Source: an uncultured Bacilli bacterium (GTDB lineage: Bacteria; Bacillota_I; Bacilli_A; RF39; UBA660). From it: a stretch of DNA of 64,000 bases. The notes below the pieces were generated by a model that saw only the letters and a list, made by a program, of their open reading frames with translations, made no database searches and was not told the DNA's origin. This document shows positions 3,826 to 53,397 of this stretch, piece after piece. The position numbers were made by a program, and so were the translations under genes. The DNA lies in NCBI GenBank assembly GCA_963931545.1, contig OZ007025.1, positions 137,145 through 201,144 on the forward strand, read 5' to 3'. Numbering within the stretch: position 1 is the stretch's first letter; the number at the start of each line of letters is the position of its first letter.

Positions 3826-5169
3826 CTATTTAATTTGATTGATTATTTTTGATATTTCTACTTCTAAATTTTTATCTTTTTTTAATTCTCTTTTTATCTT
3901 AGCAACTGAGTGCATTACTGTTGTATGGTCTTTTCCACCAAATTCACTTCCTATTTTTGGTAGAGATTCTTTTAAATGAATTCTACATATATACATGCCT
4001 ATTTGTCTTGGTACGGCTATTTTAGATAATCTTTTTTTAGATTTTATATCTTCAACTGTAATATTATAATTGTTTGCAACTAACTGTATTACTTGGTCTA
4101 TTTTATTTCTTGAGATAATGTTTTTTCCTATATAGTCTTTTAAGGCTTCTACGGCTAGTTCTAGTGTTATTTCAGAGCCATTCATTATAGTAGCATATGC
4201 GAAGACTCTAGTCAAAGCACCTTCTAGTTTTCTTATGTCGGTTGTGCAGTTATTGGCAATATATTCTTTAACTTCTTCTGGCACGAAGCTACCAATCCCT
4301 TGTGCCTCTATTTTTTTATCTAATATTGCCATTCTAAGTTTAAAGTCAGGTGGTAATATGTCGATGGTTAATCCCCAGTTAAATCTTGTTCTTAATCTAT
4401 CTTCTAATTTTTTTAAGTCATCTGGTGATCTATCAGATGATATGATTATTTGTTTATTTTGTGTGTGTAATTCATTAAATGTGTTGAAAAATTCTTGCTG
4501 AGTCTTACTTGCTATTTCCAAATATTGAATATCATCTATCATTAAGACATCTATATCTCTATATTTTCTTTTAAATTTATCTACAGCTTTGAAATTACTT
4601 GTTTCACTTTTTCTATATATGTTTAAAAAATCATCGACAAATTTTTCACTAGTTACATATAATACTTTTTTGTTTGATGTTGCCATGATATAATTTCCTA
4701 TTGCATGCATAAGGTGAGTTTTACCTAAACCGCTACTACCGTATATAAATAGTGGATTATACATTGCACCTGGTTTTTCAGCAACAGCCAAACCTATGGC
4801 TTTTGCAAATTTATTACTTTCACCAGATATAAAGTTATCAAAGGTGTATTTGCTATCAAGGCCACTTTCAAATATAGCTTCATTATTGTTTTCTACTTTA
4901 GTTTGGGGTTTATCTTCAGTTATTTCATCTGGTGTGACATATTTGAATTTAAAGATAGAACCAGTAACTTCCATAAATGTTTCTTTAATTATTTCTCCAT
5001 AGTTTTCTCTTAAATGTTTTTTATGGACATCTAGTGGTACTTCTACTATGGCATATTCATTATTTAGGTCAATTAGTTTTGTGTCTTGAAACCATGTTTG
5101 AAATAAAACTGGTTTTAATTTTATTTCAATTTTGGATAAAAAAACGGACCACATATTTTCTAAATCCAT
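3826..5169 (-). CDS. dnaA: Chromosomal replication initiator protein DnaA
   Basis: 447-aa ORF with the AAA+ Walker A motif GSSGLGKTHL and a C-terminal DNA-binding domain. It is flanked by DnaA boxes. Confidence 0.95.
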   Translation of the reverse strand: MDLENMWSVFLSKIEIKLKPVLFQTWFQDTKLIDLNNEYAIVEVPLDVHKKHLRENYGEIIKETFMEVTGSIFKFKYVTPDEITEDKPQTKVENNNEAIFESGLDSKYTFDNFISGESNKFAKAIGLAVAEKPGAMYNPLFIYGSSGLGKTHLMHAIGNYIMATSNKKVLYVTSEKFVDDFLNIYRKSETSNFKAVDKFKRKYRDIDVLMIDDIQYLEIASKTQQEFFNTFNELHTQNKQIIISSDRSPDDLKKLEDRLRTRFNWGLTIDILPPDFKLRMAILDKKIEAQGIGSFVPEEVKEYIANNCTTDIRKLEGALTRVFAYATIMNGSEITLELAVEALKDYIGKNIISRNKIDQVIQLVANNYNITVEDIKSKKRLSKIAVPRQIGMYICRIHLKESLPKIGSEFGGKDHTTVMHSVAKIKRELKKDKNLEVEISKIINQIK

Positions 5170-5530
5170 ACTACTACCCCCGTTATAAATAATCTATAAA
5201 CATTTTACAATAAATTTACATAATTTTCTATAAAAACTGTGGAAAAAAATCGAAAAAAGTTATTAACAGTCTATAAATGTCGAATTTTAGTACTTTATGT
5301 AACGTTTCCACATAAATTGTGGATAATTATTTTTGCACATTTGTGCATAATTTATTTTTTTACACAAATGTTGAAAAATAGAAAAATTGGTTTATAATAT
5401 ATGGAAATTTTATGTGGATATTTAAAGTGAATAATTTTAAAAAAAATTTACTGTGGAAAACTTGAACGTTGATTTTTTGCTTATTTTTTGATATAATTAT
5501 GGCAATTTTTTAACAAAAATTTTGTTATTA
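5170..5530. promoter_or_regulatory. oriC upstream DnaA-box cluster and AT-rich unwinding region
   Basis: DnaA-box matches: TGTGGAAAA at about 5238-5246, TTTCCACAT at about 5305-5313, TGTGGATAA at 5318-5326, TGTGGATAT at 5413-5421 and TGTGGAAAA at 5452-5460. Long A/T tracts lie between them. Confidence 0.7.
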
Positions 5531-5531
5531 A

Positions 5532-5560
5532 TTGACAAAGTTGTTTTTTATCTATATAAT
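5532..5560 (+). promoter_or_regulatory. Consensus sigma-A promoter of the rpmH-rnpA operon
   Basis: TTGACA at 5532-5537, a 17-nt spacer, then TATAAT at 5555-5560, about 40 nt upstream of the rpmH start codon. Confidence 0.7.
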
Positions 5561-5599
5561 TTATAAAGCGATGTGAATTGAATTTAGGAGGTGTAATAG

Positions 5600-5725
5600 A
5601 TGTCTAAAAGAACATTTCAACCAAACACTCGTAAGAGAAGTAAGAAAATGGGATTTTTTGCGCGTATGAAAGCTGGTATTGTAAGTAGAAGAAGAAAAAA
5701 AGGCCGCAAGGTATTATCTCATTAA
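5600..5725 (+). CDS. rpmH: 50S ribosomal protein L34
   Basis: 41-codon [44 protein letters not shown] with a GGAGG ribosome-binding site. It falls below the ORF-track length cutoff. Confidence 0.9.
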
Positions 5726-5728
5726 TTT

Positions 5729-5756
5729 GCCACTGCTGGCGAGCAGTGGCTTTATT
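5729..5756 (+). terminator. GC-rich stem-loop between rpmH and rnpA (partial terminator or processing site)
   Basis: GCCACTGCT-GGCG-AGCAGTGGC forms a 9-bp stem, followed by TTTATT. Confidence 0.5.
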
Positions 5757-5774
5757 AGTAGTTTAGGAGAGTTT

Positions 5775-6119
5775 ATGAAGAAAATTAATATTGTCAAGGA
5801 AAATCGTGATTATAATAGAATTATTGAAAAAAATAAACCTTTTAGGTATAAGGATTATATTATATATATAGATAAAAGGGAATCTTCTATTTATAAGTTT
5901 GGTTTTTCGGTAGGTAAAAAAATTGGAAATGCGGTTGTTCGTAATAAAGTTAAAAGACAAATTAAGGAAATTGTTTCACAAAATGACTATAAAAATGATT
6001 TTGATTGTATTATAATAGTTGGTAAAGGTATTTTAAATAGAAGTTTTAGTGAGATGAGTCAAGATTTGAATTTTGCTTTACGAAAACTTAATTTAGTAAA
6101 GGAGCGAAAAGATGCATAA
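5775..6119 (+). CDS. rnpA: Ribonuclease P protein component
   Basis: The protein starts MKKINIVKENRDYNRII and contains the GFSVGKKIGNAVVRNKVKRQIKE RNase P motif, immediately after rpmH. The ORF-track start at 5727 lies upstream of the GGAGAG ribosome-binding site. Confidence 0.85.
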   Translation: MKKINIVKENRDYNRIIEKNKPFRYKDYIIYIDKRESSIYKFGFSVGKKIGNAVVRNKVKRQIKEIVSQNDYKNDFDCIIIVGKGILNRSFSEMSQDLNFALRKLNLVKERKDA

Positions 6120-7125
6120 AAAAATTGGATTATTTTTATTGATAGGTGTTTTATCTTTATCTCTTACTGGATGTACTGAATATGTTAAGAATAAAGATGG
6201 TAATCCTGTGAAGGAAGCAACTACTGGACAAACACTTGCTTCAAATATACTTTGTAAGCCAACTAATAAAGATGTTATTAAAACTTATAAGAAAAACAAG
6301 GTAGATATTGAAGATTTGCCAAAATGTGAAAATTTTACTCCAGCTTCTGGAGAATATGGTGGAATTTGGGAAACTATTTTTATTAAACCTTTAAGTTGGT
6401 TTATTATTAAGGTTGGAGAAATTCTTAGTAATTATGGTTTAGCTATTATTGTTGTTACTTTGATTATTCGTTTAATTATTTTTCCTATTAGTAAAAAATC
6501 GGCTTTACAGTCTGAAAATATGAAGTTTGCTCAAAAGGATTTAGAGAGGTTAGAGCGTAAATACCGTGGACGTGAAAGTCAAGAAGACCAAATGATGAAA
6601 GCTCAAGAGATGATGGGAATTTATAAAAAATATGATATTAATCCAATGTCGGGTTGTTTATTTGCTTTTATTCAAATGCCATTATTCTTTGCTTTCTTAG
6701 AGAGTTTGAATAGACTTCCTATTGTCTTTGAAGGTAAATTTTTAGGATTTAATTTAGGAATGAGTCCATTTGTTAAGTTATTTGGTGGAAATTTTGATTT
6801 TTCAGTATTTATGGATAGTTTTACTAATGGTGGATGGATTTATTTATTACTTCCAATATTAGTTGCTTTAACAACATTCTTTTCATTTAGATTAAATTCT
6901 GGTGTTAGTAGTGGTAATGAAGAACAGATGCATCAGATGAAGGTTATTATGAATGTAATGCTTGTATTTATTGTAATTACTTCATTTACAATGCCAACAA
7001 GTATTATTATATATTGGATAACTGGTAGTTTATTTACTATTATTCAAGCTGAAGTGATTAGGAGGATGAAGGAAAATGTTAAAGGTGGTACAAAAAGAAT
7101 CAAAAAACAAAGAAGAAGCGCTTAA
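6112..7125 (+). CDS. yidC: Membrane protein insertase YidC/OxaA family (lipoprotein type)
   Basis: An N-terminal lipobox (LSLTGC) precedes a multi-TM 60-kDa insertase core. Its position after rnpA is conserved. Confidence 0.9.
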   Translation: MHKKIGLFLLIGVLSLSLTGCTEYVKNKDGNPVKEATTGQTLASNILCKPTNKDVIKTYKKNKVDIEDLPKCENFTPASGEYGGIWETIFIKPLSWFIIKVGEILSNYGLAIIVVTLIIRLIIFPISKKSALQSENMKFAQKDLERLERKYRGRESQEDQMMKAQEMMGIYKKYDINPMSGCLFAFIQMPLFFAFLESLNRLPIVFEGKFLGFNLGMSPFVKLFGGNFDFSVFMDSFTNGGWIYLLLPILVALTTFFSFRLNSGVSSGNEEQMHQMKVIMNVMLVFIVITSFTMPTSIIIYWITGSLFTIIQAEVIRRMKENVKGGTKRIKKQRRSA

Positions 7126-7690
7126 TAAGTGTTTAGAAGAATTGAATGTTAATTCTAGCGAGGTTTACTTTTATATAGAAGAAAGTGCTTCTGGACTTTT
7201 TGGTAAGAAGAAATATACAGCTTATGTGGTAACTAAATATGATGTTAAAGAGTTTGTTAGGAAATTTTTAAATAACTTAGCTAATAATATGAATATTTCA
7301 TTTAATATTGAAGTTAATGAAAAAGATGGTGTTATTTCAGCAATTATTGTTACTGATGATAGTGCAATATTGATTGGTAAAGAAGGTAAGACATTAAATT
7401 CTATTCAAACTATATTGAGACAATCTTTGAGAAAATATGGTAATTTTGATATTAAGGTTAATTTAGATATTTCAGGTTATAAGTTAAAAAGGGAGAAAAA
7501 TATTGAAAGAGAAGTTAGAAAACTTGCGAAAGATGTTTTGAAGACTAAAATAGAAGCTAAGTTAGACCCAATGAATTCTTATGAAAGAAGAATTGTTCAT
7601 AATCTCATTGCTTCTTATGATGGTTTAACTACTCAAAGTGAAGGAGAAGCTCCTAATAGATATGTAGTTATTAAGATTAAAGAAGATTAA
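7076..7690 (+). CDS. jag: Jag/KhpB RNA-binding protein (KH and R3H domains)
   Basis: The C-terminal R3H motif is YERRIVHNLIASYDGLTTQSEGEAPNRYVVI. The gene sits in the conserved position after yidC. Confidence 0.8.
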   Translation: MLKVVQKESKNKEEALNKCLEELNVNSSEVYFYIEESASGLFGKKKYTAYVVTKYDVKEFVRKFLNNLANNMNISFNIEVNEKDGVISAIIVTDDSAILIGKEGKTLNSIQTILRQSLRKYGNFDIKVNLDISGYKLKREKNIEREVRKLAKDVLKTKIEAKLDPMNSYERRIVHNLIASYDGLTTQSEGEAPNRYVVIKIKED

Positions 7691-7859
7691 GTTCTTCTTT
7701 TTTTATTAAATAGTGAAAATTATATACAAATTATATTTTATATAATTTAATGTTAATATGTATTATATGTCATTAAAGTGTTAAGAAGATTAATTTCTTC
7801 TTTTTGTGTGTTTAAATACATTTATCAATGTGATATTATTTAAAATAGGGTGGTGTGCT

Positions 7860-9341
7860 ATGAAAAAAGGTTTTAATAATGAAAAGTATGTTGAAATTCA
7901 AAGTAAGAAAATAAAAGAAAAAATAAAAAAGTTTGATAAACTATATTTAGAGTTTGGTGGTAAATTATTTGATGATTATCATGCATCTAGGGTTTTGCCT
8001 GGTTTTGAACCTGATTCTAAGATTAAAATGTTACTTGAATTAAAAGATATTACTGAAATAATTATATGTATTAATGCTAAAGATATTGAAAGAAAAAAAA
8101 TACGTGCTGATTATGGTATTACTTATGATATGGAAGTTTTGAGATTAATTGACGAATTTCAAAATTTAGGTTTATCTGTTAATAGTGTTGTTATTACTTT
8201 ATATACTGGTAAAGAGAGTTCTAAGAAATTTATTAATCAGTTAGAAAAAAGAAATATTAAAACTTATGTACATACGCCTACTAAAGGTTATCCAACTGAT
8301 GTGGATGTAATTGTTTCTGATGAGGGATATGGCGCTAATCCATATATTAAGACTACTAAAAAATTGGTTGTTGTTACTGCTCCTGGTCCTTCTAGTGGTA
8401 AGTTAGCTACTTGTTTATCTCAACTTTATCATGAATATAAAAGAGGTGTTAAAGCTGGATATGCAAAATATGAAACTTTTCCTGTTTGGAATTTACCTTT
8501 AAAACATCCTGTTAATGTTGCTTATGAAGCGGCTACTGCTGATTTAAAGGATGTTAATATGATAGATTCATTTCATTTAGAAAAATATGGTATTACTTCT
8601 GTTAATTATAATAGAGATTTAGCTGTTTTTCCTGTTTTAAAGTCTATTTTGCACAAAATAACTGGTGAGGATATTTATTATTCTCCTACTGATATGGGTG
8701 TTAATATGATAGGTTCTTGTATTGACGATGATGAGGCTATATGTGCGGCTAGTAGGCAGGAGATTATTAGAAGATATTATAAGGCTTTATGTGATTATAA
8801 AACTGGAGATGCTGATGAAGAGGTTTATAAAAGAATTAAAGTTTTAATGAATGAACTTGAAATTAATCCTTTAAAAGAAAGAAAAGTAATTGATGTTGCT
8901 AGAGATAAAAGTAGTAATGAAGATTTACCTGTTATTGCTATGGAACTAGCTAATGGTAAAATTATTACTGGTAAGAAAACTGAAATATTGAGTCCTGCTA
9001 GTAGTTTGATTTTAAATGCAGTTAAAGAGTTGACTAAAATTCCTGATGATGTTGATTTACTTTCTAAATCTGTTTTAGAACCTATTTTAAAACTTAAACC
9101 TTTAGGTAATCATACTTCTAACTCTTTAAATTTGGAAGAAGTTTTAATTGCTCTCAGTATTTGTTCAGCTACTAATCCTATTGTTAAAAGGGCTTTGAAA
9201 AATTTGAATAAATTATCTGGATTAGAAGCTCATGCATCTTTTATGGTTTATAATGGTGATTTAAATACTTTAAAAAGACTTAATATTAATTTAACTTGTG
9301 ATCCTATATTTTATTCTAATAATTTATTTATGAGTGAATAA
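7860..9341 (+). CDS. UPF0371/DUF1846 family protein
   Basis: The N-terminal block KLYLEFGGKLFDDYHASRVLPGFEPDSKIKMLLELKD matches the conserved start of UPF0371 proteins of Firmicutes. The start was chosen at the ATG at 7860, in frame with ORF 7806, which has a GGGTGG ribosome-binding site. Confidence 0.75.
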   Translation: MKKGFNNEKYVEIQSKKIKEKIKKFDKLYLEFGGKLFDDYHASRVLPGFEPDSKIKMLLELKDITEIIICINAKDIERKKIRADYGITYDMEVLRLIDEFQNLGLSVNSVVITLYTGKESSKKFINQLEKRNIKTYVHTPTKGYPTDVDVIVSDEGYGANPYIKTTKKLVVVTAPGPSSGKLATCLSQLYHEYKRGVKAGYAKYETFPVWNLPLKHPVNVAYEAATADLKDVNMIDSFHLEKYGITSVNYNRDLAVFPVLKSILHKITGEDIYYSPTDMGVNMIGSCIDDDEAICAASRQEIIRRYYKALCDYKTGDADEEVYKRIKVLMNELEINPLKERKVIDVARDKSSNEDLPVIAMELANGKIITGKKTEILSPASSLILNAVKELTKIPDDVDLLSKSVLEPILKLKPLGNHTSNSLNLEEVLIALSICSATNPIVKRALKNLNKLSGLEAHASFMVYNGDLNTLKRLNINLTCDPIFYSNNLFMSE

Positions 9342-37163: not shown

Positions 37164-38636
37164 ATGAAAAAATTTGGAATAGGATTTATTTTAATTATAA
37201 CTATTATTTTAGTTTGTGTTTTAGGGTTTGGTTATAAAACATCTCCAGAGCCAAATAATTATTATGAGGTTTATTTGAATGATAAATCTTTGGGAACTAT
37301 TGCTTCTAAGGAGGAATTAGAAGAATATATCGATAAAAATGGTTCTTATTATAAAAATAAGTTTGATGTTGATAAGGTTTATTCACCAAAAGGATTACAA
37401 ATCAGAAGATTAACAACTTATGATGGAGATGTTGATTCAGTATCTGATATTTATGGAAAGATTGCTAAAAAAGAGTCTTTTACTGTTAGAGGTTATGAGT
37501 TTGTTATTAAAGGTCAGCGTGCTGAAAAAGAAGGCGAAGAAGCTAAACTTATAACTCAAAGTATTTATGTTTTAGATAAAGATATTTTTAAAAAGGCTAT
37601 TGAAGCTTTAATTAGGACTTTTGTTGGTGAAGATAAATATGAAGCTTATATTGAAGATAATCAAGTAAAAATAGAAACTACTGGTGAGGAGATTCAAAAT
37701 GTATATGTTGATGAGGATATTACAGTTAAAGAAACTAATATCCCAGTAGATGCAACTATTTATACTGATGCAAGTGAGCTTGCTAATTATTTACTTTATG
37801 GAAAAGACCAGAAAGCTAGAGAATATGTTGTTCAAGCTGGAGATACTATTGAAAATGTTGCTTTTAATAATAAGATTAGTCCAGAGGAAGTTTTAATTTC
37901 AAATTCTAGTTTAACTAGTACAACTAATTTATTATACCCAGGTCAAAAGTTAAAGATAGTTGAAACTAATCCACAGATTAGTGTTGTTGAAGAATCTTAT
38001 TTAGTTGAGGATATTGAAAGTGCTTATCCTACTGAGGAAAGATATGATGAAAATGCGGCTATTGGTATTGATAAGGTTATTCAAAATGGAGAAAATGGTT
38101 TAGAGCGTGTTTCTCAAAGGGTTAGAAAAGTTAATGGTGTTATAAACTATGTTATTCCTGAGGGTAAAACAGTTCTTAAGGCTCCTACTAGTAAAATTAT
38201 TTTGAAAGGTACTAAATATATTCCAGATGTTGGTAGTACGACTAGCTGGGGATGGCCAACTGATAGTGGTTGGAGATTAAGTAGTGGTTATGTTTGGAGA
38301 ACAAATCCAGTTACTGGTAGACGTGAGTTACATGGTGGTTTAGATATAAGTGGTACTGGATATGGCTCTAAGATATATGCGACTAATAATGGTAGAGTTA
38401 AAGAGGCTAGTTATCATTATAGTTATGGTAATCATGTTATAATTGATCATAACAATGGATATTTAACTTTATATGCTCATATGTCTAGGATTAATGTTAA
38501 AGTAGGTCAGGTTGTAGCTAGAGGAGATGTTATTGGTTATGTTGGTATGACTGGTACGGCTACGGGTCCGCATGTACATTATGAAATTTGGAAAGGCTGT
38601 GATTATTGCCGAATTAATCCAATGAGTATGTATTAA
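37164..38636 (+). CDS. M23 family metallopeptidase with LysM and G5-like domains
   Basis: N-terminal TM anchor, LysM YVVQAGDTIENVA, and an M23 HxxxD/HxH core (HGGLDI...HVHYEI). Confidence 0.75.
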   Translation: MKKFGIGFILIITIILVCVLGFGYKTSPEPNNYYEVYLNDKSLGTIASKEELEEYIDKNGSYYKNKFDVDKVYSPKGLQIRRLTTYDGDVDSVSDIYGKIAKKESFTVRGYEFVIKGQRAEKEGEEAKLITQSIYVLDKDIFKKAIEALIRTFVGEDKYEAYIEDNQVKIETTGEEIQNVYVDEDITVKETNIPVDATIYTDASELANYLLYGKDQKAREYVVQAGDTIENVAFNNKISPEEVLISNSSLTSTTNLLYPGQKLKIVETNPQISVVEESYLVEDIESAYPTEERYDENAAIGIDKVIQNGENGLERVSQRVRKVNGVINYVIPEGKTVLKAPTSKIILKGTKYIPDVGSTTSWGWPTDSGWRLSSGYVWRTNPVTGRRELHGGLDISGTGYGSKIYATNNGRVKEASYHYSYGNHVIIDHNNGYLTLYAHMSRINVKVGQVVARGDVIGYVGMTGTATGPHVHYEIWKGCDYCRINPMSMY

Positions 38637-41168: not shown

Positions 41169-42422
41169 TTGATGGATAAAATTAAAGTTATTGGAAAACA
41201 GACTCTAAGTGGAAAGATATATATAAGTGGTTCTAAGAATAGTGTGGTTTCATTACTTCCAGCATCTATTTTGTCTGATGAGACAGTAATTGAAAAAGTA
41301 CCACATATTTCTGATGTGGATAATTTAGAAGAAATTTTAAGGTATTTAGGAGTTAAATTTTCTTTAGAAAGTGGTACTATTCATATTGATAGTACTTCTA
41401 TGGTAAATAAACCTATACCTTTAGAATATTCTACTAAACTTAGAGCATCTTATTATTTTATGGGAGCTATGCTTTCTAAGTTTAAAAAGGTGGAAATAAG
41501 TTTTCCTGGTGGCTGTAATATAGGAGCAAGGTCTTTTGATTTTCATTTAAAAGGATTTGAAAAATTAGGGGCTAAAGTGACCATTAAAGATGATTTATAT
41601 ATAATTGAAGCTAAGGAATTAAAAGGTGCTTTTATTGATTTACCTTTTCCGAGTGTAGGAGCGACTGTCAATATAATTTTGGCCTCTTTAAAAGCTAAAG
41701 GAAAAACTATTATAAATAATGCTGCTAGTGAACCTGAAATTGGTAATTTAATTGATTTTTTAAATAGTATGGGAGCTAAAATTAAAGGTAAGGATACTAA
41801 TAGGTTAGAAATTATTGGGGTTGGTAAGTTAAGTGGTGGCTCTGTTAGAGTTATACCGGATAGAATAGAAGCTGGAACATATATTTTAGCTGGTGTTATG
41901 AATGGAGATAATTTAGAGATTTGTGATGTTAATCCTAATCATTTGACAAGTTTTTTTAAAGTATTAGATGAAATGGGATGTGATTATAAGATTGTTGGAG
42001 ATAAGGTTATTACTAATAAAGTTTCACATTTAAATTCAGTCAATATTGAAACAGATGTTTATCCTGGTTTTGCGACGGATTTACAGCAACCTATTACAAC
42101 ACTTTTATTACAATGTGATGGTGTAAGTACAGTTAAAGAGACAATTTATGAAAATAGGTTTCAAAATATTAAATATTTAAATGAAATGGGGGCACATATA
42201 GAAGTTTTAGGTAATACTATTAAAGTATATGGCCCAACTTCTTTAAAAGGTAAGTTAGTTAGAACTAGTGATTTAAGAGCAGGAGCTGCTTTAGTTTTAG
42301 CGGCTTTATCAGCTGAAGGGGAAACAACTATAACTGATATTAAACATTTACTTAGAGGTTATAGTGATTTGATTAAAAAATTAACTAATGTTGGGGCTAA
42401 AATATGGCTTGAAGATGAATAG
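41169..42422 (+). CDS. murA: UDP-N-acetylglucosamine 1-carboxyvinyltransferase
   Basis: 417 aa EPT family with the catalytic Cys loop FPGGCNIGAR. Confidence 0.9.
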   Translation: MMDKIKVIGKQTLSGKIYISGSKNSVVSLLPASILSDETVIEKVPHISDVDNLEEILRYLGVKFSLESGTIHIDSTSMVNKPIPLEYSTKLRASYYFMGAMLSKFKKVEISFPGGCNIGARSFDFHLKGFEKLGAKVTIKDDLYIIEAKELKGAFIDLPFPSVGATVNIILASLKAKGKTIINNAASEPEIGNLIDFLNSMGAKIKGKDTNRLEIIGVGKLSGGSVRVIPDRIEAGTYILAGVMNGDNLEICDVNPNHLTSFFKVLDEMGCDYKIVGDKVITNKVSHLNSVNIETDVYPGFATDLQQPITTLLLQCDGVSTVKETIYENRFQNIKYLNEMGAHIEVLGNTIKVYGPTSLKGKLVRTSDLRAGAALVLAALSAEGETTITDIKHLLRGYSDLIKKLTNVGAKIWLEDE

Positions 42423-47277: not shown

Positions 47278-47455
47278 GCTTTTAGGGTTTACTTTTTTTG
47301 TTATGAGGGGTGATTTTTTTAACAATATATATTGAAAATGTCGTTAATTTTTGTTATCATTATTATGGCACAATATGGTATCAAAAAAGTTGCTTACTTA
47401 AGTGTGGTTTATTCATACCTTTGTGTTTGCAATTAAAAGTGGAGAGGAGGATTTT

Positions 47456-48010
47456 ATGGAAAAGAAAATTAGTTATTCAGGAGTTATTATTACGGTACTT
47501 GCTGTGGCTATATTAGTTATGTCAGTGGGGTTTGCGGTATTTAGTGCAAATATTAATTTTAATGGTACAGCTAATGTTTCTAGTACTAGGTGGAATGTAT
47601 TTTTAGATGAAAGTACTTATCAAAAAACAGAAGGTAGTGTAGAATCTGTTAGTGAGCCTACTATTAATACTAATTCAATGACTTATAGTGTTAATTTAAC
47701 TAAACCTGGTGATTTTTATGAATTTACTATTCATGTAAAAAACACTGGTTCATTTAATGCAAAATTGAAAAGCCTTACTATGACTGATATTTCTGAACAT
47801 TCTAATTACTTGAAATATACAATTACCTATGCTGGTACACCTTATACTAGCTCTAATTCTAGTTTATCTATTCCACTTAATGCTGGAACTGGTGATGAGG
47901 AAGTTAAAGTAAGAGTTGAATATGTTCAACCTTTACAGGCTACTGATTTACCTAGTGAACTTAAGGCTATTACTTTAAATGCAGCTTTTGATTATGAACA
48001 AGTAGCTTAA
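47456..48010 (+). CDS. TasA/camelysin-like protein with a SipW-cognate-type signal peptide
   Basis: GGAGAGGAGG ribosome-binding site. The signal-peptide end VMSVGFAVFSANINFNGTA resembles the G-T-[FW]-A-x-F-[ST]-D class. NLTKPGDFYEFTIHVKNTGSFNAKLK resembles the TasA NLKPGDKLTKDFQFENNGSLAIK block. Confidence 0.6.
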   Translation: MEKKISYSGVIITVLAVAILVMSVGFAVFSANINFNGTANVSSTRWNVFLDESTYQKTEGSVESVSEPTINTNSMTYSVNLTKPGDFYEFTIHVKNTGSFNAKLKSLTMTDISEHSNYLKYTITYAGTPYTSSNSSLSIPLNAGTGDEEVKVRVEYVQPLQATDLPSELKAITLNAAFDYEQVA

Positions 48011-48021
48011 GTATAGTGTTT

Positions 48022-48051
48022 TAGCTATTCTATTTTTAAATAGAATAGCTA
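48022..48051 (+). promoter_or_regulatory. Perfect 14-bp inverted repeat between the TasA-like and SipW-like genes
   Basis: TAGCTATTCTATTT-TT-AAATAGAATAGCTA with no T-run after it. It could be an attenuator or RNA-stability hairpin, or an operator. Confidence 0.5.
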
Positions 48052-48066
48052 AAGCTCATTATTCAT

Positions 48067-49194
48067 ATGGAAAAATATAAAAATTTATATATTACAGAAG
48101 TTTTAATACTTTTGATTTATATAGTTTTGAAACTTTTGTGTATGAATCAGCCTTTCTTTTTACAGTATTTTGATGCTATATATTTTTGTTTAATTTTTAT
48201 TTATTTTTATTTTAAATATGGAATAGCTAGAGATAAAAATTATTATACAAAAATAAGTGTTAGATATATAATTATATTTTTACTTTTATATGTCTTAATC
48301 ATTTATGGTTTGGGCCTTTTTATGGGGTTTACTAAAACTATATATGATAATAGTTTGGCTTTAATTTTAAAAAATGCATTACCAATTACTATTTTAGTTA
48401 TTTTTAGAGAATTAACGAGATTTATAGTTGCTTATAATAGTAAAAAAAATATGAAACCTATTATATTATTGACTATTATTTATATATTATTTGACTGTTT
48501 TAGTGGATTTGTTAGTTCTTCTTTTAATTCATTTTATAATATATTTCAGCTTGTTTGTTTAACTATATTACCTTCTATATCTAAACATATGCTTTTAAGT
48601 TATTTAACTTATAAGATTAACTGTTTTCCTTCTTTGGTATATAGTTTACCTATGGAAGTTTTAATATATGTATTACCTTTTTTCCCTAATTTAGGTGATT
48701 ATTTAACGGCTGTTATATCATTATTTTTACCTTTTTGTATATATTTGTTTATTAAAAAATTACTTAGTTATGATGAAAAGGAAGTTTTGAAGATTCATGG
48801 CTTATTTATTAAGATATTTATGATAATTACTATAACATTTTTAATTATAATAATTATACTTGTATCTGGAATTTTTAAATATAAAATGATTGCAATTGCT
48901 TCTGATTCAATGAACCCTATTTATTATAGAGGAGATGCTATTATATATGAAAAGGTTAGTTTAGATGAACTTCAGAAAAATGATATTTTAGTTTTTGAAT
49001 ATAATAATTCTGTTGTTACTCATAGGATTATTAATATTATAGAAGAAAATGGTCAAAAATATTTTCAAACTAAAGGGGATAACAACTCTAAAGCTGATTT
49101 GAATTTGGTATCTATGAACGATGTTTTAGGTAAGGTTAAATATATTGTTAAATATATTGGTTTTCCTACAGTATGGTTTAATGAAACGTTTTAA
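48067..49194 (+). CDS. SipW-type (S26B, Ser/His) signal peptidase I fused to a roughly 250-aa N-terminal polytopic membrane domain
   Basis: The C-terminal 100 aa carry SDSMNP (catalytic Ser box), VTHRIINI (His box) and TKGDNN (Asp box), typical of archaeal/eukaryotic-type SipW. Residues 1-275 form about 7 hydrophobic helices. The alternative start at ATG 48820 (MIITITFL...) would give a canonical single-TM SipW of about 124 aa, but no ribosome-binding site is evident there. Confidence 0.65.
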   Translation: MEKYKNLYITEVLILLIYIVLKLLCMNQPFFLQYFDAIYFCLIFIYFYFKYGIARDKNYYTKISVRYIIIFLLLYVLIIYGLGLFMGFTKTIYDNSLALILKNALPITILVIFRELTRFIVAYNSKKNMKPIILLTIIYILFDCFSGFVSSSFNSFYNIFQLVCLTILPSISKHMLLSYLTYKINCFPSLVYSLPMEVLIYVLPFFPNLGDYLTAVISLFLPFCIYLFIKKLLSYDEKEVLKIHGLFIKIFMIITITFLIIIIILVSGIFKYKMIAIASDSMNPIYYRGDAIIYEKVSLDELQKNDILVFEYNNSVVTHRIINIIEENGQKYFQTKGDNNSKADLNLVSMNDVLGKVKYIVKYIGFPTVWFNETF

Positions 49195-49209
49195 AAGGGG
49201 TGAGAAGCT

Positions 49210-50268
49210 ATGAAAAAAAGAAAAATTGACAAACTTATAATAGTGGCTATTATATCTGCTTTGTGTTCTTTTTTAGCTTTAAACTTAGCTAGACTTGGTT
49301 TTCGTAATTATAATGAGAGGATAATTAATTATAATGAAGATTCAAAAATTAATTATCAAGTTCATTTGAAGTCTAATGATTTTTTTCAAAATGAATTTTT
49401 GCCAGAAAATATGTCTTACGTTACTAGTTTAATTGATTATATAAAATTGAATTTTGATTATAATTTGAATTTCGATAAGGAGTTAAGTGGAACATATTCT
49501 TATTATATAAAAGCTACTATGGACGCTAATAAGGAAAATAGTGATAGTAAGTTTTATACTAAAGATTATATTTTAAGTGATGTTAAAACCGAAAAATTTG
49601 ATGATAAGAAAAAAATTAATATAAAAGAAAGTATCGATGTTGATTATGATACTTATAATGATGTTTTAATTGCTTTTAGGGACGAATATGGCGTTCAAAT
49701 GGATGGTAATTTGGATGTTAGTTTGGTTGTTGAAAGTACTTTTAATGATAAAGTTAGTGGGGAAGATGCTGGCAAGAAAAGTGAAACTAGTCTTAATATT
49801 CCTTTAACTACTTTAACTGTTGAAGTTCCTATTGAAAAGGATAATAAGGTAAATAGTGGGATTTTACTTTCGACTAAAATTACTAAAGAAGGGTTTATTT
49901 ATAATGTATTTAGAGTTTTAGCTATTATTTGTTATATAGCGGCCTTTACTTTTCTTTTATATTTTATTTATTTAACTTATTTGAGTTTTAAATTAGAAAA
50001 CGCTTATGTTAAAAAATTAAAGAAAATATTAAAGGTATATGATGGTATTATTGTAAATGTTAAGAAAAAACCTAGTATGGATAATAATAAAGTTGTTTGG
50101 GTTTCTAGTTTTGAAGAATTGATAGATGCTCACGGAGAGGTTAGAAATCCAATTAATTATATTCAAGAAAAAGATGGTGCTTTGTTTTTATTAGTTAGTG
50201 AGAGTTATATTTATGCTTATAAATTAAGAAGAGAACTTTTTGTGCGTGAGGAGAAAATCAATGTTTAA
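49210..50268 (+). CDS. DUF5305-like bitopic membrane protein (SipW-locus associated)
   Basis: N-terminal TM, a roughly 200-aa extracytoplasmic segment, a second TM (VLAIICYIAAFTFLLYFIYL) and a roughly 100-aa cytoplasmic tail. From memory, proteins with this architecture co-occur with SipW and camelysin genes. Confidence 0.4.
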   Translation: MKKRKIDKLIIVAIISALCSFLALNLARLGFRNYNERIINYNEDSKINYQVHLKSNDFFQNEFLPENMSYVTSLIDYIKLNFDYNLNFDKELSGTYSYYIKATMDANKENSDSKFYTKDYILSDVKTEKFDDKKKINIKESIDVDYDTYNDVLIAFRDEYGVQMDGNLDVSLVVESTFNDKVSGEDAGKKSETSLNIPLTTLTVEVPIEKDNKVNSGILLSTKITKEGFIYNVFRVLAIICYIAAFTFLLYFIYLTYLSFKLENAYVKKLKKILKVYDGIIVNVKKKPSMDNNKVVWVSSFEELIDAHGEVRNPINYIQEKDGALFLLVSESYIYAYKLRRELFVREEKINV

Positions 50269-52624
50269 GTTTTTTAAAAAAAATATAATTCTCATGCTTT
50301 TTTGTTTTGCTTTTTGTTTAATGAGTGTTGGGTATGCTTTATATGGTGAGACAGTTAATTTAAATGGAAATATTACTTTGCAAAAAGTAGGTAGAATTGA
50401 AATTACTAGTGCTTCTATTGTGAGTGGTGAGTGCAGTAATATTAGTAATTATGGTAATCCTACTTATAATGGATTACATATTGATTTTAAATTTAACACG
50501 AGAAGTAAGAATTTTACGGCTACTTATTTGGTTACGGTTACAAATAATTCTAATGTTCCTTATACTTATACTGGTACTTTAATAAATTCTAATATTATTA
50601 TTAGTGGTAGTACATATACACCGATGCTTAGCTCTACTTTGACTTATGCAGATAGTGGCGCTTTATTTGAAAATGGTGAATCTATTGATGTTGGTGAGTC
50701 TGTTAATTTAAAGATAAAAATGGATTTTGAAATCGAGCAAAATCCTAGTACTATGAATGTTAGTGGTGGTGTTGATTTTTCTGTTTCACAGGATAATACT
50801 GGTAGTTTAATTCCTTCTATTACCCCTTTAACTGGTAATTTAAGAGGTGATGGAACAATAGCACCTTTTACTTTAAAAGTTATTAATACTTTTAAGTATA
50901 ATAGAAGTTTTAGTTTGTCTTCTAGTAACGAAAATATCATTATAGTTGATAGTAATGGAAGTAGTTTAAATAATTTTACTATTCCTGCTAATTCTACGAA
51001 TGAATATACTATATATTTAATGGTTAAAAAAGGTAGTATATTTTTAACTGATAAAACTGATACAAATATTATATTATCTTCTAGGATGATTGATGATATA
51101 AATGTTGGTAAAATTGATTTGGATGTTGACAAGGATATTAATGCAACTGATTATGAAAAACCTGAAATTGGTAATGTTAATATTAAAATAAGTGAAAGTA
51201 ATCCGGTTGATGGTGAGGCTATTATTTCTTGGACACGTTTGGATAGTGGTGGATCATCAATTATTAATTATTATATTGAACTTGTTAATGTTGATAGTGG
51301 TGAGGTTAAAAAATATGAAACAGGTTCTTCTATAACTAGTTATACGGCTACTGGACTTAGTGCTGGTAATTATTATGCTAGAGTTTATGGTGAAGATGAG
51401 GCTGGAAATATTGGCTCTGATGACTGCTCAGTCGGAAATAGTTATTGTCCTAGTTCTGATGAAGTTTATTTGAGATGGGTATTTAATGTAACTAATGAAA
51501 TTGATAGATATTTAAGGTTTGATGGTGAGCCAACTGCTAATATATATACTAGTTATGAGATGAATCTTAGTGTACAAACTGGTTGGAGACTTCCTGATAC
51601 GGTGGAAATAACTATGGGTGGTGTTACTTTAGTTAGTGGAACTGATTATACGTATGATGCAAGTACTGGCCGAATTGTGATTAACAAGGTTACTGGTGAT
51701 ATATTTTTGAAAGCACATAGCCAAAATGGTTGTTTGGTGGAAGGAACTAAAATTAAATTAGCTGATGGTAGTTATAAAAATATTGAGGATATCGATTATG
51801 ATGATTTACTAATGGTATATAATCATGAAAACGGTGGTATTACTTATGAATATCCAATTTGGATTGAAAAGGTTAAAAAAGCTGATTCTTATGAGAAAAT
51901 TACTTTTAGTGATGGTTCTTATTTAAATACATGGGGACCTCATAGTTTGTTTAGTTATGATAAGATGGATTATGTTAATGTATTAATTCCTGATGATTTC
52001 CATGTAGGAACTAAGATTGTTAAAATTGTTAATGGTAAGATAAAAATAGTAGGTGTTGTTAAAATTGAAACTATTAATGATGAGATAAATTATTATCATG
52101 TTTCTTCTACTAGATATCATAATGTGATTGCTAACGATGTACTTACTACGGATGGTACTGGTGTGACAATGTATTTATATAATTTTAATGATGATTTAAC
52201 TTGGGGTAATGCTAGAGATGAATTTTTAGCTAAAAATGATTTATTTACTTATGAATATTTAAAACCTATTTTTCCTAAATATTTGTATTATGGTTATAGA
52301 ATGGCTGAGGGTAAAAATCCTTATAATCAAGGTAAGTTATTTATTGATAATATTGCTTATTTATTAAATAAAAATAATACTAAAGAAATTTTTAAGGATA
52401 AAGATAATAATAATTTATGGATGGTTACAACTAGTGATGATTTGGTTAATCCTTTTAATAAGAAAAAATATTTAAGAAAAGAAGATAGTTATTATACTTT
52501 ACCTATACCTAAAAATAAAAATAAATTTATTGGTTGGTTAAATACTGGTGATAATAAGATTTATAAACCTTTTGATAAGGTTAAAGTTTTACATGGTATG
52601 CATTTTGTTGCTAAATACGAATAG
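50261..52624 (+). CDS. Secreted 787-aa multidomain protein: SipW-cognate-type signal, TasA-like beta domains, FN3 domain, Hint (intein-like) autoprocessing domain, unknown C-terminal module
   Basis: GAGGAG ribosome-binding site. The signal MFKFFKKNIILMLFCFAFCLMSVGYALYGETVNLNG is paralogous to that of ORF 47456. FN3-like WTRLDSGGSSIINYYIELVNVDSGE...TATGLSAGNYYARVYGEDEAGN lies at about nt 51160-51445. Hint block A CLVEGTKIKLADGSYKNIEDIDYDDLL starts at nt 51731. A TWGPH block B and a YHNVIANDVLT block F-like motif follow. The C-terminal roughly 140 aa are uncharacterised. Confidence 0.7.
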   Translation: MFKFFKKNIILMLFCFAFCLMSVGYALYGETVNLNGNITLQKVGRIEITSASIVSGECSNISNYGNPTYNGLHIDFKFNTRSKNFTATYLVTVTNNSNVPYTYTGTLINSNIIISGSTYTPMLSSTLTYADSGALFENGESIDVGESVNLKIKMDFEIEQNPSTMNVSGGVDFSVSQDNTGSLIPSITPLTGNLRGDGTIAPFTLKVINTFKYNRSFSLSSSNENIIIVDSNGSSLNNFTIPANSTNEYTIYLMVKKGSIFLTDKTDTNIILSSRMIDDINVGKIDLDVDKDINATDYEKPEIGNVNIKISESNPVDGEAIISWTRLDSGGSSIINYYIELVNVDSGEVKKYETGSSITSYTATGLSAGNYYARVYGEDEAGNIGSDDCSVGNSYCPSSDEVYLRWVFNVTNEIDRYLRFDGEPTANIYTSYEMNLSVQTGWRLPDTVEITMGGVTLVSGTDYTYDASTGRIVINKVTGDIFLKAHSQNGCLVEGTKIKLADGSYKNIEDIDYDDLLMVYNHENGGITYEYPIWIEKVKKADSYEKITFSDGSYLNTWGPHSLFSYDKMDYVNVLIPDDFHVGTKIVKIVNGKIKIVGVVKIETINDEINYYHVSSTRYHNVIANDVLTTDGTGVTMYLYNFNDDLTWGNARDEFLAKNDLFTYEYLKPIFPKYLYYGYRMAEGKNPYNQGKLFIDNIAYLLNKNNTKEIFKDKDNNNLWMVTTSDDLVNPFNKKKYLRKEDSYYTLPIPKNKNKFIGWLNTGDNKIYKPFDKVKVLHGMHFVAKYE

Positions 52625-52743
52625 TGTTAGTTATTTACTAGCGCTATTTTATTTTTAAATCATTAATTATTTTAAAAATGTCGCTGCTCTATTATAATTT
52701 AATTTTATTATAATTATTATAGATTTATATTAGTGGTGAAACT

Positions 52744-53397
52744 ATGAAAAATAAGTATAATATGACTAAAGAAGATAATATATTTTTTGCTAAAAGAAAG
52801 TTAGTAGATAATATATATAAAAGTGCTAATTTAGAAGGAATTGCTGTTGCTTTTGCTGATATATATGCTTTTATGAATAATGTTAACACAGGTAATATTT
52901 CTGTGGATGATATGCTTAAACTTAAGGGACTTAAAGATGCTTGGGAATATGTTTTGAATAGTGTAGATGAAGAATTAACGATAGATTATATTAAAAAAAT
53001 TCATTTTGAAATTTGTAAAGGTCAAAATATTTATCCTTTAGGTGATTTTAGAAAGTGTGGTGTAGGTATTACTGGTACATCTTGGAGGCCTAAACTTCCC
53101 AGTGAATGTGATTATGAGGCTGAATTAAATGAGTTATTTAATATTTCTTCTGAAATAGATAGATGCATTAGTATATTTTGCTGGATACAAAGAAGTCAGA
53201 TGTTTTTAGATGGTAATAAAAGAGTAGCTAATTTGGTTGCTAATAAAGAGATGATTAAAAATGGTCAGGGTGTTATTGCTATTTCTGTAGAGAAAATTGG
53301 CGATTATATGGTTAGGTTAATTAAATATTATGAAACTAATGATATGTCAGAAATTAAAAAATGGATATATGATAATTGTATTGATGGTATTAATTAA
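52744..53397 (+). CDS. Fic/Doc-family protein with a degenerate active-site motif (SQMFLDGNKRVA)
   Basis: Motif FCWIQRSQMFLDGNKRVANLVAN aligns to Doc HIFNDANKRTA and Fic HPFxDGNGR. It has the Doc-type NKR, but the motif His is replaced by Gln. Confidence 0.55.
   Translation: MKNKYNMTKEDNIFFAKRKLVDNIYKSANLEGIAVAFADIYAFMNNVNTGNISVDDMLKLKGLKDAWEYVLNSVDEELTIDYIKKIHFEICKGQNIYPLGDFRKCGVGITGTSWRPKLPSECDYEAELNELFNISSEIDRCISIFCWIQRSQMFLDGNKRVANLVANKEMIKNGQGVIAISVEKIGDYMVRLIKYYETNDMSEIKKWIYDNCIDGIN

Follow-up and report, generated by a model that had tools for sequence, protein, structure and literature searches.

TasA fibres are assembled by donor-strand exchange. The loci of P. abyssi AbpX and of the bacterial and archaeal homologues of AbpX combine a subunit of the TasA superfamily with an SPase I of ten helices, an accessory DUF5305 protein and tip or minor subunits, as described in a preprint of January 2026 in which Hint or intein domains are not mentioned (bioRxiv 10.64898/2026.01.04.697558). 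An SPase together with a DUF5305 protein is also found in the Tafi loci (PMC12337348), and no Hint cassette has been reported for the Tafi subunits (PMC12337348, PMC11821415).

In the present study we analysed a window of 64,000 nucleotides, the whole stretch of DNA under study, from an uncultured Bacilli bacterium. Four of its genes, g1 to g4 (47456-52624), form a conserved operon of uncultured gut Bacilli; all genomes behind the comparisons are uncultured MAGs. The initial annotation did not recognise the gene combination as a described system. The combination has been published for AbpX, and its peptidase and DUF5305 pair for Tafi, so that the operon type is already described and not new as such. 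That claim does stand for the cassette of a Hint domain and a C-terminal module carried by g4: we found no description in the literature of such a cassette on a large minor subunit, and it is apparently an undescribed part of the system.

Results

The five co-directional open reading frames lie where they had been initially annotated, and the domain calls made for them hold by ORF coordinates, HMM searches, profiles and models (Table 1). The promoter proposed for g1 is present as a match, but such matches are no commoner in this AT-rich stretch than in shuffled sequences (58 versus 52.3 +/- 6.8), and it is therefore plausible by position only. The stem-loop between g1 and g2 is a candidate attenuator or mRNA stabiliser that may raise the ratio of subunit to accessory proteins. 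Terminator-like hairpins bracket the genes, which we count in favour of the operon, and a second promoter-like site (52671-52698), separate from that of the operon, is located 5' of the Fic gene.

Table 1. Features of the locus, in window coordinates.
Feature	Position	Strand	Remarks
Promoter-like TTGAAA-17 nt-TATCAT with TG extension	47332..47360	+	10/12 matches; intergenic gap 5' of g1
g1, predicted major fibre subunit, 184 aa	47456..48010	+	
Stem-loop, 17 bp, without U-tail	48018..48055	+	between g1 and g2; -21.6 kcal/mol, z -5.6 versus shuffles
g2, dedicated signal peptidase, 375 aa	48067..49194	+	polytopic N-terminal domain fused to S26B catalytic domain
g3, DUF5305 protein	49210..50268	+	PF17231 65.5 bits, cut-off 29
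g4, 787 aa	50261..52624	+	g1-like domain, beta domains, FN3, Hint, C-terminal module
g4 aa 1-180: signal peptide, N-terminal strand, subunit-like domain D1	50261..50800	+	
g4 aa 181-490: stalk, three beta domains	50801..51730	+	predicted model and profile
g4 aa 491-632: Hint (bacterial intein-like) autoprocessing domain	51731..52156	+	profile and AlphaFold model
g4 aa 633-787 and stop codon: conserved C-terminal module, 155 aa	52157..52624	+	
Intrinsic-terminator-like hairpin and U-rich tail, UUUUAUUUUU	52619..52649	+	ends operon after g4; -15.5 kcal/mol, z -4.9
g5, Fic/Doc-like	52744-53397	+	Fic 28.3 bits, cut-off 24

A comparison of gene neighbourhoods found the order g1-g2-g3-g4 in about 35 other loci, on MAG and metagenome contigs with differing genomic contexts, and it is kept in essentially every locus with enough upstream DNA, down to 32% identity. 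The gene 3' of g4 varies by locus and may be Fic, spoVG, CYTH or an unrelated ORF. The initial annotation had counted the Fic/Doc-like gene with the locus; its Fic match is confirmed, but its membership of the system is not. No more than the three closest relatives have the gene at the locus, every other locus lacks it, and a terminator with a U-tail precedes it; it is thus an unrelated neighbour.

The g1 protein starts with a signal peptide (aa 1-27), with predicted cleavage after a conserved SVGFA, followed by a conserved amphipathic N-terminal strand (aa 28-45) and a beta-sandwich domain (aa 48-182) that carries the motif PGDFYEF. In g4 the corresponding signal peptide (aa 1-26, predicted cleavage after SVGYA) and strand (aa 27-44) precede D1, whose model shows aa 30-41 disordered and strands across aa 46-176. 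Both families have in common [ST][VI]G[FY]A, followed by x[FYL]...LxINGT in g1 and by xY...LxLNGN in g4; the stretch of approximately 20 residues that follows the predicted cut is conserved, has alternating hydrophobic and polar residues and is unstructured in both monomer models. Furthermore, aa 1-165 of g4 align to all of g1 in a profile-profile comparison (hhalign, 98% probability, E 1.9e-13), by which D1 is homologous to the whole of g1. The two signals had been taken as paralogous and similar to the SipW-cognate class; the paralogy is borne out by the conserved pattern and this alignment, but HMM searches with TIGR04088 (SipW-cognate signal) gave no match for g1 or g4, and neither did the TasA/camelysin Pfam models.

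Two independent methods gave as best fold matches of g1 only TasA-superfamily subunits of donor-strand filaments (7pnb, 7ueg, 9p0a, 8aur), with the TasA fibre 8aur as top Foldseek match and chaperone-usher pilins ranking next. By sequence, g1 could be linked neither to TasA or AbpX nor to any other subunit of solved structure: a search of the PDB with the profile returned nothing relevant, the alignment with AbpX is out of register (E 0.1), and hhalign with a TasA sequence aligned only the motif KPGD...N.G (E 0.3).

The SipW-type S26B peptidase annotated between the two substrates is confirmed for g2 by TIGR02228 (archaeal/ER-type signal peptidase I; 89.1 bits, cut-off 51.85, E 2.6e-25, aa 252-370) and by Peptidase_S26 (27.5 bits, cut-off 22.9). 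Its archaeal/ER-type catalytic domain comprises aa ~250-370 and comes after some 250 aa of polytopic sequence; hydropathy indicates 9-10 hydrophobic segments in the polytopic aa 1-278. The best 120 of 774 homologues are mostly ~375 aa long. An alignment of 113 sequences shows conservation of 95% or more for S281-M282-x-P284, T318-H319-R320 and G337-D338-N339-N340, and equally for E115 and R118 of the membrane part. The assignment of g3 to DUF5305 likewise stands. Hydropathy gives this protein a transmembrane segment at 9-27, an external domain of ~200 aa, a second segment at 236-254 and a cytoplasmic domain of ~100 aa, the same topology as published for DUF5305 (bioRxiv 10.64898/2026.01.04.697558). 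It is presumed to be the accessory subunit of the g2 peptidase, and the end of its gene overlaps the start of g4 by 8 nt.

The composition proposed for g4 is found in terms of subunit-like beta domains, FN3, Hint and C-terminal module, but not as a match to TasA/camelysin models. The model divides the stalk into D2 (aa 183-288), FN3 (aa ~296-395) and D4 (aa 396-490); the profile supports FN3 at aa ~303-385, matching titin FN3 with E 1.8e-21 and also fibronectin, and PF00041 is precomputed on many homologues.

The Hint domain, also predicted at the outset, is faint in Pfam (E 0.03-0.08), but its family profile matches the solved BIL domain BIL2 (6y75) over the full length with E 1.7e-8. The AlphaFold model (pLDDT 88) gave Foldseek TM-scores of 0.81 with BIL2, 0.83 with a C. 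thermocellum BIL domain, 0.82 with the DnaB mini-intein and 0.71-0.76 with Hedgehog Hint domains. Cys491 is the first residue, TxxH is found at 557-561, and the domain ends with L-T-T-D and then Gly in place of H-N and a nucleophile. No other region of g4 is as well conserved: C491 and H561 occur in 76/76 sequences and T557 in 66 of them.

The C-terminal module directly follows the Hint domain, at the C-terminal end, in all 76 proteins in which both are complete; the protein ends at most 17 residues after the module among the examples listed, and the largest tail overall is 49. The model shows a helical part (aa 635-701) and then a beta part (aa 718-786). The last ~50 aa resemble the Listeria-Bacteroides (Flg_new) repeat, matched by 4 of 24 members (best E 2.4e-4), and sequence searches found no solved relative and no toxin family match. 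The module has 137 matches in 1.84 billion representative proteins and is conserved family-wide, with a mean top-residue frequency of 0.53, similar to the stalk. Proteins with a type IV pilin-like N-terminus carry the cassette as well, as would be expected of a payload on a filament-integration module, and in one case (L025) the stalk accompanies it. These sequence features suggest that the cassette may be an autoprocessing payload at filament tips.

Discussion

We propose that the four-gene operon probably builds a donor-strand-type surface fibre of the TasA superfamily with its own processing machinery. In this mechanism g1 and g4 would be exported by Sec and stay tethered by their special signal peptides until cut, after the conserved [ST][VI]G[FY]A, by a dedicated complex of g2, a Ser/His peptidase of S26B type with a 9-10-helix membrane domain, and the DUF5305 protein g3. 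The predicted cut would free the amphipathic strand xF...LxINGTAxV, which may then enter the beta-sandwich of a neighbouring subunit, leading to a polymer of g1. Since g4 shares this strand and begins with a domain like g1, one copy would be incorporated as a minor subunit, the tip being its most likely place by analogy with the bulky minor pilins of type IV systems, displaying the stalk of two beta domains and FN3 that ends in the Hint domain and the 155-aa module. The conservation of the catalytic residues points to an N-to-S acyl shift at residue 490/Cys491. The Hint domain is probably unable to splice, because Thr-Asp replaces His-Asn and no nucleophile follows; the thioester would be resolved either by hydrolysis, so that the Hint domain and module are shed, or by a different attacking nucleophile. 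Against a fibre counts that g1 has no sequence-level link to solved subunits and that TIGR04088 and the TasA/camelysin models are silent.

An alternative placement of g4, which we consider unlikely, is at the base of the fibre, with the Hint thioester coupling it covalently to peptidoglycan or lipid of the producer's envelope. Such an attachment would stand in for the sortase/LPXTG or SLH anchors of other bacterial TasA-like loci, and the locus is indeed without LPXTG, SLH and a sortase gene, which bacterial AbpX loci often have (bioRxiv 10.64898/2026.01.04.697558). Among solved structures BIL2 is the closest relative of the Hint domain, and it ligates its preceding domain to lysine amines; a donor-strand protein would be added last if growth took place at the membrane; and the organism probably has peptidoglycan, given a LysM-M23 protein and a MurA-like gene in the window. 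The same cassette is nevertheless found on large type IV pilin-like proteins, whose bulky C-terminal payload points outward since the N-terminal helix is the membrane-proximal end, and long stalks with FN3 are a usual feature of distal adhesins.

It is still less probable that g1 and g4 form no fibre and are ordinary monomers, either surface or S-layer-like proteins, dependent on a dedicated signal peptidase, with the cassette as an intramolecular aid to folding or secretion that is removed after export. Self-cleaving C-terminal chaperone domains are known from other fibre proteins, and beta-sandwiches are common, with only moderate similarity of fold to filament subunits here and no sequence-level membership of the TasA family. 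However, the best structural matches by both methods are specifically strand-exchange filaments, and the monomer models leave the conserved N-terminal strand without a partner. A small protein of abundant type and one large protein have this strand and the first domain in common, like known major/minor pairs, and the AbpX and Tafi fibre loci have an identical gene set.

The polymorphic-toxin architecture initially suggested, in which Hint would release a C-terminal toxin from g4 like PT-HINT and g1-g3 would serve only for export and processing, is very improbable: although Hint directly precedes a module without assigned function and a Fic/Doc-like gene directly follows in the window, polymorphic toxins have variable tips whereas all 76 cassette-bearing representatives have the same conserved module, no toxin family match was found for it, and the downstream gene differs among loci, which leaves no conserved immunity partner.

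The proposed fibre locus resembles the AbpX loci in its small secreted beta-sandwich subunit, its larger subunit-like tip or minor protein, its TIGR02228-type SPase I with about ten TM helices and its DUF5305 protein of the same topology. Unlike AbpX, which is no detectable sequence homologue and is absent from the top structural matches of g1, the g1 family has no acidic residue at mature position 4; it has a pI of 4.9 and 9.8% Asp+Glu, versus ~4.0 and ~15% in AbpX, and no SLH, LPXTG, sortase or c-di-GMP genes are located nearby. The haloarchaeal Tafi pili (TafA/TafE, with the TafD peptidase and the DUF5305 protein TafG; PMC12337348, PMC11821415) differ in being archaeal and in having mostly Tat-exported subunits. 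The B. subtilis tapA-sipW-tasA operon likewise has a dedicated S26B (Ser/His) peptidase and, beside its major fibre subunit, a minor one whose N-terminal strand is related. Its gene order is different, as had been noted initially, and here a DUF5305 partner is present, the minor subunit has 787 aa with FN3 and Hint, and the TasA/camelysin and TIGR04088 models are unmatched; unlike SipW, g2 is fused to a 9-10-helix domain and reaches 69.6 bits against the SipW equivalog cut-off of 190.

With the BIL and Hedgehog ('Hog') Hint domains, the g4 domain has in common the fold (TM-score 0.71-0.83), the first-residue Cys and the conserved TxxH. BIL2 transfers its upstream domain to amines. Hedgehog also lacks a working C-terminal splice junction and has a conserved C-terminal region after Hint, to whose sterol-recognition region the 155-aa module bears no detectable relation. 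In contrast to both, the Hint domain described here ends in Thr-Asp/Gly and its host is a predicted filament subunit exported via a dedicated signal peptidase.

Results

The operon and its genomic setting

Five co-directional ORFs were read between 47278 and 53397 of the window, encoding a predicted major fibre subunit (g1), a signal peptidase (g2), a DUF5305 protein (g3), a large minor subunit (g4) and a Fic/Doc-like protein (g5). The window has a low G+C content (about 27%) and its GC skew switches sign close to 5 kb, where a gap of about 940 bp between dnaA and yidC is probably the chromosomal replication origin, which would place the fibre operon about 42 kb away and on the leading strand. 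On the other side the locus adjoins the S10 ribosomal protein operon. The origin genes and the S10 operon thus locate g1-g4 in the core chromosome, on no obvious mobile element. Two further genes of the window, for a LysM-G5-peptidase M23 protein and for a member of the EPSP synthase family that is MurA-like, suggest the presence of peptidoglycan in an organism whose relatives are labelled Tenericutes or Mycoplasma.

Coordinates of the operon, its surroundings and the predicted parts of g2 and g4
Feature	Position	Strand	Size or basis
recF	753-1865	minus	
dnaN	2567-3688	minus	
dnaA	3826-5169	minus	
Probable replication origin	5170-6111		about 940 bp
yidC	6112-7125	plus	
LysM-G5-peptidase M23 gene	37164-38636		
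MurA-like gene	41169-42422		
g1	47456-48010	plus	184 aa
g2	48067-49194	plus	375 aa
g2, polytopic domain	48067-48810 (aa 1-248)	plus	
g3	49210-50268	plus	352 aa
g4	50261-52624	plus	787 aa
g5	52744-53397	plus	217 aa
S10 operon, start	53612		
g4, signal helix	aa 2-27		model
g4, disordered strand region	aa 30-41		model
g4, domain 1	aa 46-176		model
g4, domain 2	aa 183-288		model
g4, FN3	aa ~303-379		model; profile E 1.8e-21 to titin FN3
g4, domain 4	aa 402-485		model
g4, Hint domain	aa 491-630		model
g4, helical region	aa 635-701		model
g4, small beta unit	aa 718-786		model

Conservation of g1-g4

More than 110 homologues of g4 were found, nearly all of 780-800 aa and matching over the full length down to 30% identity, in metagenome-assembled genomes (MAGs) labelled Bacilli, Tenericutes or Erysipelotrichaceae. 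A scan with one genome per species gave 49 loci, all from uncultured MAGs and many labelled as gut or rumen samples. The five window proteins were compared by tblastn with all 56 fetched loci, and wherever the upstream DNA reached far enough, the order g1-g2-g3-g4 was present in essentially all cases; this neighbourhood, including the position of the peptidase gene directly 3' of the subunit gene, is kept in about 35 loci. The flanking genes vary, being a ribosomal operon, spoVG/yabP, CYTH or murB. In the window a strong hairpin lacking a U-tail follows g1, and a U-tailed hairpin follows g4, ahead of a separate promoter-like site for the Fic gene. Synteny, varied flanks and hairpin layout together indicate that the unit comprises g1-g4. 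The promoter proposed upstream of g1 is present as a motif, but it is indistinguishable from chance matches.

The initial annotation had counted the Fic/Doc-like gene as part of the locus. We rejected it as a member of the system, because g5 occurs in the three closest relatives only, as does g0 (the gene upstream of g1), and because g5 lies behind the terminator. The protein scores 28.3 bits against PF02661 (Fic), just over the cut-off of 24, and its motif as read by eye, QMFLDGNKRVAN, combines a Doc-like GNKR with a Gln at the expected position of the catalytic His (reference HxFx(D/E)GN(G/K)R). In these three relatives the identity of g5 is 91-95%, but that of g4 reaches only 71-78%. In a distant relative (locus L002, 1664-4614) the four-gene operon is preceded by another, partial module, in which a g1-like gene (187 aa), a DUF5305 gene (357 aa) and an ORF of 407 aa occur and a second peptidase is lacking.

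The peptidase and its putative accessory protein

The g2 protein scores 89.1 bits against TIGR02228, the model of archaeal/ER-type signal peptidase I (cut-off 51.85), and stays below the cut-off of the bacterial-type model TIGR02227. The Ser/His pair is the signature of S26B enzymes, and in 113 aligned homologues the motifs S281-M-x-P, T-H319-R and G-D-N-N each show a conservation of 95% or more. Judged by its sequence, g2 is therefore an S26B (archaeal/ER-type, SipW-like) signal peptidase I, as had been claimed for it. It was rejected as a SipW orthologue on the basis of 69.6 bits against the Bacillus SipW equivalog NF046067 (cut-off 190) and of an additional polytopic domain, which spans about 250 residues ahead of the catalytic domain and comprises 9-10 hydrophobic segments. 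This fusion is a trait of the family (the best 120 of 774 homologues are for the most part about 375 aa long). Within the polytopic domain N103, E115 and R118 within FRELTRF are strictly conserved, together with several Gly and Pro residues; model searches returned no family match for it, and it is given no enzymatic assignment.

The DUF5305 assignment of g3 also holds, with 65.5 bits against PF17231 (gathering score 29). Hydrophobic segments at aa 9-27 and 236-254 delimit an external part of about 200 aa and a cytoplasmic part of about 100 aa, leading to the topology TM, external domain, TM, cytoplasmic domain of the TafG-like signal peptidase accessory proteins.

The predicted fibre subunit and its copy in g4

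The paralogous N-terminal pattern noticed in g1 and g4 is borne out in 75 g1 and 76 g4 homologues, in which [ST][VI]G[FY]A precedes a strand of alternating hydrophobic residues, xF..LxINGTAxV....W in the g1 family and xY..LxLNGNxTL in the g4 family. Furthermore, a profile-profile alignment matches the entire g1 to residues 1-165 of g4 (98% probability, E 1.9e-13), so that a copy of the subunit forms the start of g4. In the AlphaFold model of g1 (pLDDT 86) a signal helix and a stretch without structure (aa 23-47) precede a beta-sandwich (aa 48-182). Its best three Foldseek matches, with moderate scores, are AbpA, the 0406 thread and the fibre of TasA, all of which polymerise by strand donation. 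The fold of g1 and of g4 domain 1 is accordingly a beta-sandwich/jelly-roll like that of TasA, AbpA, the Saci_0406 thread and Tafi. Considering the conserved amphipathic strand, which follows the predicted cleavage site and is unstructured in the monomer models, we infer that g1 would polymerise by insertion of its N-terminal strand into the next subunit.

At the level of sequence the relationship is not recovered. Neither g1 nor g4 matched the TasA/camelysin Pfam model or TIGR04088, the SipW-cognate signal; the g1 family profile retrieved no solved subunit, and hhalign with a TasA sequence aligned the motif KPGD...N.G only (E 0.3). Thus, of the resemblance to SipW-cognate TasA proteins put forward in the initial annotation, the fold and the adjacent peptidase stand, but membership by sequence does not. 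That g1 and g4 are surface proteins of a non-fibre type, a reading that these negative searches would favour and the fold matches oppose, appears improbable to us.

The Hint domain and the C-terminal module

The profiles and the AlphaFold model of g4 (pLDDT 88) uphold the proposed composition of TasA-like beta domains, FN3, Hint and C-terminal module. Longer versions of g4 (1040-1115 aa) with a duplicated subunit-like domain 1 occur in L004, P0367, P0390, P0392, P0430 and P0471, and in L004 (6578-11303) an extra 467-aa gene separates the DUF5305 gene from the large one.

Pfam Hint models alone are faint on g4 and remain under their cut-offs. The presence of a Hint domain was nevertheless substantiated by a full-length match of its sub-profile to BIL2 of Tetrahymena BUBL1 (6y75; E 1.7e-8) and by superposition of its model on BIL domains, mini-inteins and the Hedgehog Hint domain with TM-scores of 0.71-0.83 (0.81-0.83 for BIL domains). 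It is the best-conserved region of g4 in 76 homologues, with the first residue C491 and H561 invariant (76/76 each) and T557 present in 66/76, which gives the block B TxxH. At its end an L-T-T-D is followed by Gly (T629 74/76, T630 66/76, D631 63/76, G632 61/76) and aligns with LAH(N) of BIL2. Since L-T-T-D-G stands where BIL2 has L-A-H-N, the C-terminal splice junction is absent and the chemistry of the N-terminal junction alone is expected. A true intein was rejected, as both the C-terminal His-Asn and the +1 nucleophile are missing and a domain of about 140 aa is too short to include an endonuclease.

Conservation among the 76 homologues extends to the C-terminal 155 residues. An identity for this module was sought in Pfam and the PDB and none was accepted: its profile found no solved relative among PDB sequences, and the sole Pfam signal was a resemblance of the last ~50 residues to the Listeria-Bacteroides (Flg_new) repeat in 4/24 members. 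The arrangement may be compared with the Hedgehog 'Hog' unit, in which the C-terminal region after Hint recruits the nucleophile resolving the thioester; the architecture here is analogous, the Hint domain being followed in every case by the same 155-aa module. In BIL2, the solved domain closest to this Hint domain, the preceding domain is conjugated to lysine amines through its thioester (PMC8616854), which gives a precedent for ligation and not mere cleavage.

The cassette on other carriers

Several loci match only the C-terminal part of g4. In three of them (L051, L053 and L054) the cassette of Hint domain and C-terminal module lies on a protein beginning KKGFTLIELLAVIVIL, a type IV pilin signal with PF07963 and TIGR02532 above their cut-offs, and in L025 domain 2, FN3 and domain 4, the stalk of g4, are fused along with the cassette. 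In the latter locus (3899-8860) the gene of the pilin-like stalk-Hint protein lies directly 3' of an SpaA-domain LPXTG protein and sortase pair and of Flg_new-repeat proteins, so that three kinds of surface-filament genes are clustered there.

A search with the C-terminal module alone in 1.84 billion representative proteins yielded only 137 hits, which were classified with local HMMs. A complete Hint domain directly precedes a complete module, at the C-terminal end of the protein, in 76 of them, whose N-termini are g4-type (44), type IV pilin (6), AYF[TS]D (3), other (18) or truncated (5); no full-length protein among the 137 hits had the module without a Hint domain. The AYF[TS]D proteins (P0394, P0439 and P0453) show a signal peptide followed by AYF[TS]D...N.FT, by eye a classical TasA/camelysin SipW-type N-terminus. 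They could represent a third carrier class, a lead for which TIGR04088 and the other HMMs gave no support.

This distribution is the pattern of a payload exchanged between filament-integration modules, which speaks for g4 as a minor subunit borne on a filament and against a toxin. A polymorphic toxin releasing a domain through PT-HINT, one of the two architectures that the initial annotation had seen in the large protein, was rejected as very improbable, as this module is conserved whereas a variable toxin domain would be expected, and the downstream genes differ between loci with no adjacent cognate immunity gene kept.

Discussion

The observation made in the initial annotation is confirmed and its interpretation partly supported. 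The analysis shows which genes the operon contains, the folds and catalytic residues of their products, its synteny and the distribution of the cassette. From these we propose that g1-g4 is probably a strand-exchange fibre operon with its own peptidase, in which g4 carries a self-processing cassette. In this mechanism g1 and g4 would be exported by Sec and cleaved by a g2-g3 complex after Ala27 of g1 and Ala26 of g4, g1 would polymerise via strand exchange and a single g4 would occupy one end of the polymer (probably its tip), and autoprocessing of the Hint domain at 490/491 would lead to the shedding or exchange of the C-terminal cassette. A role of g4 in anchoring to the envelope is unlikely, though less so than the non-fibre reading.

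Going beyond the fibre operon, we tentatively suggest, as a possibility with the odds against it, that the Hint domain and the 155-aa module form a portable 'reactive tip', distal on TasA-like fibres and type IV pili, ligating the fibre covalently to a target. A thioester may form at the last stalk residue, the module may present the nucleophile of the target, and Hint and module may be released; the target may be a glycan or protein of the host, another cell, or the wall of the producer itself. If true, bacteria would have in it a counterpart of Hedgehog cholesteroylation or BIL2 conjugation, serving adhesion or anchoring.

Fibres of the TasA-like, strand-exchange kind are emerging in more than one domain of life as a route to biofilm matrices and pili. 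With the g1-g4 operon their range would come to include a clade of gut Bacilli, uncultured and low in GC (about 49 species-level genomes), in the core chromosome beside a ribosomal protein operon. If the cassette is active, one end of the filament would have a built-in chemical step, shedding or covalent ligation, which would represent a new principle for adhesion or anchoring.

Comparison with known systems

The closest described loci are those of a preprint on AbpX of P. abyssi (January 2026; bioRxiv 10.64898/2026.01.04.697558), bacterial and archaeal, with an AbpX-like subunit, minor subunits and predicted tip proteins, a dedicated ten-TM signal peptidase I (TIGR02228) and a DUF5305 accessory; in Tafi the peptidase TafD is likewise paired with the DUF5305 protein TafG (PMC12337348, PMC11821415). 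The g1-g4 operon matches the AbpX architecture in its polytopic signal peptidase I, its DUF5305 protein and its minor or tip subunit, and the topology of g3 is exactly that of the published accessory. Membership of the AbpX subfamily itself was rejected, since the locus architecture alone fits: phmmer of g1 against AbpX gave E 0.1 with an alignment out of register, the g1 family profile found no AbpX chain at E <= 1, and the top 50-60 structural matches of g1 do not include AbpX. The subfamily is defined by an aromatic residue at mature position 2, an acidic residue at position 4, a pI of about 4 and about 15% Asp+Glu. The g1 family has F/L/Y at position 2 and T/Q/S/A, none acidic, at position 4, and g1 has a higher pI (4.87) and fewer acidic residues (9.8% D+E); in the g4 family position 2 is Y/F in 74/76 and position 4 acidic in 20/76 only.

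Hint or intein domains are not mentioned in the AbpX preprint, and a full-text search of the literature returned nothing relevant joining Hint/intein-like domains with TasA, donor strand, pilin or pilus. Thus, of the combination that the initial annotation did not recognise as described, the operon architecture is already published, but the Hint and C-terminal cassette, common to two kinds of filament subunit, is apparently described here for the first time.
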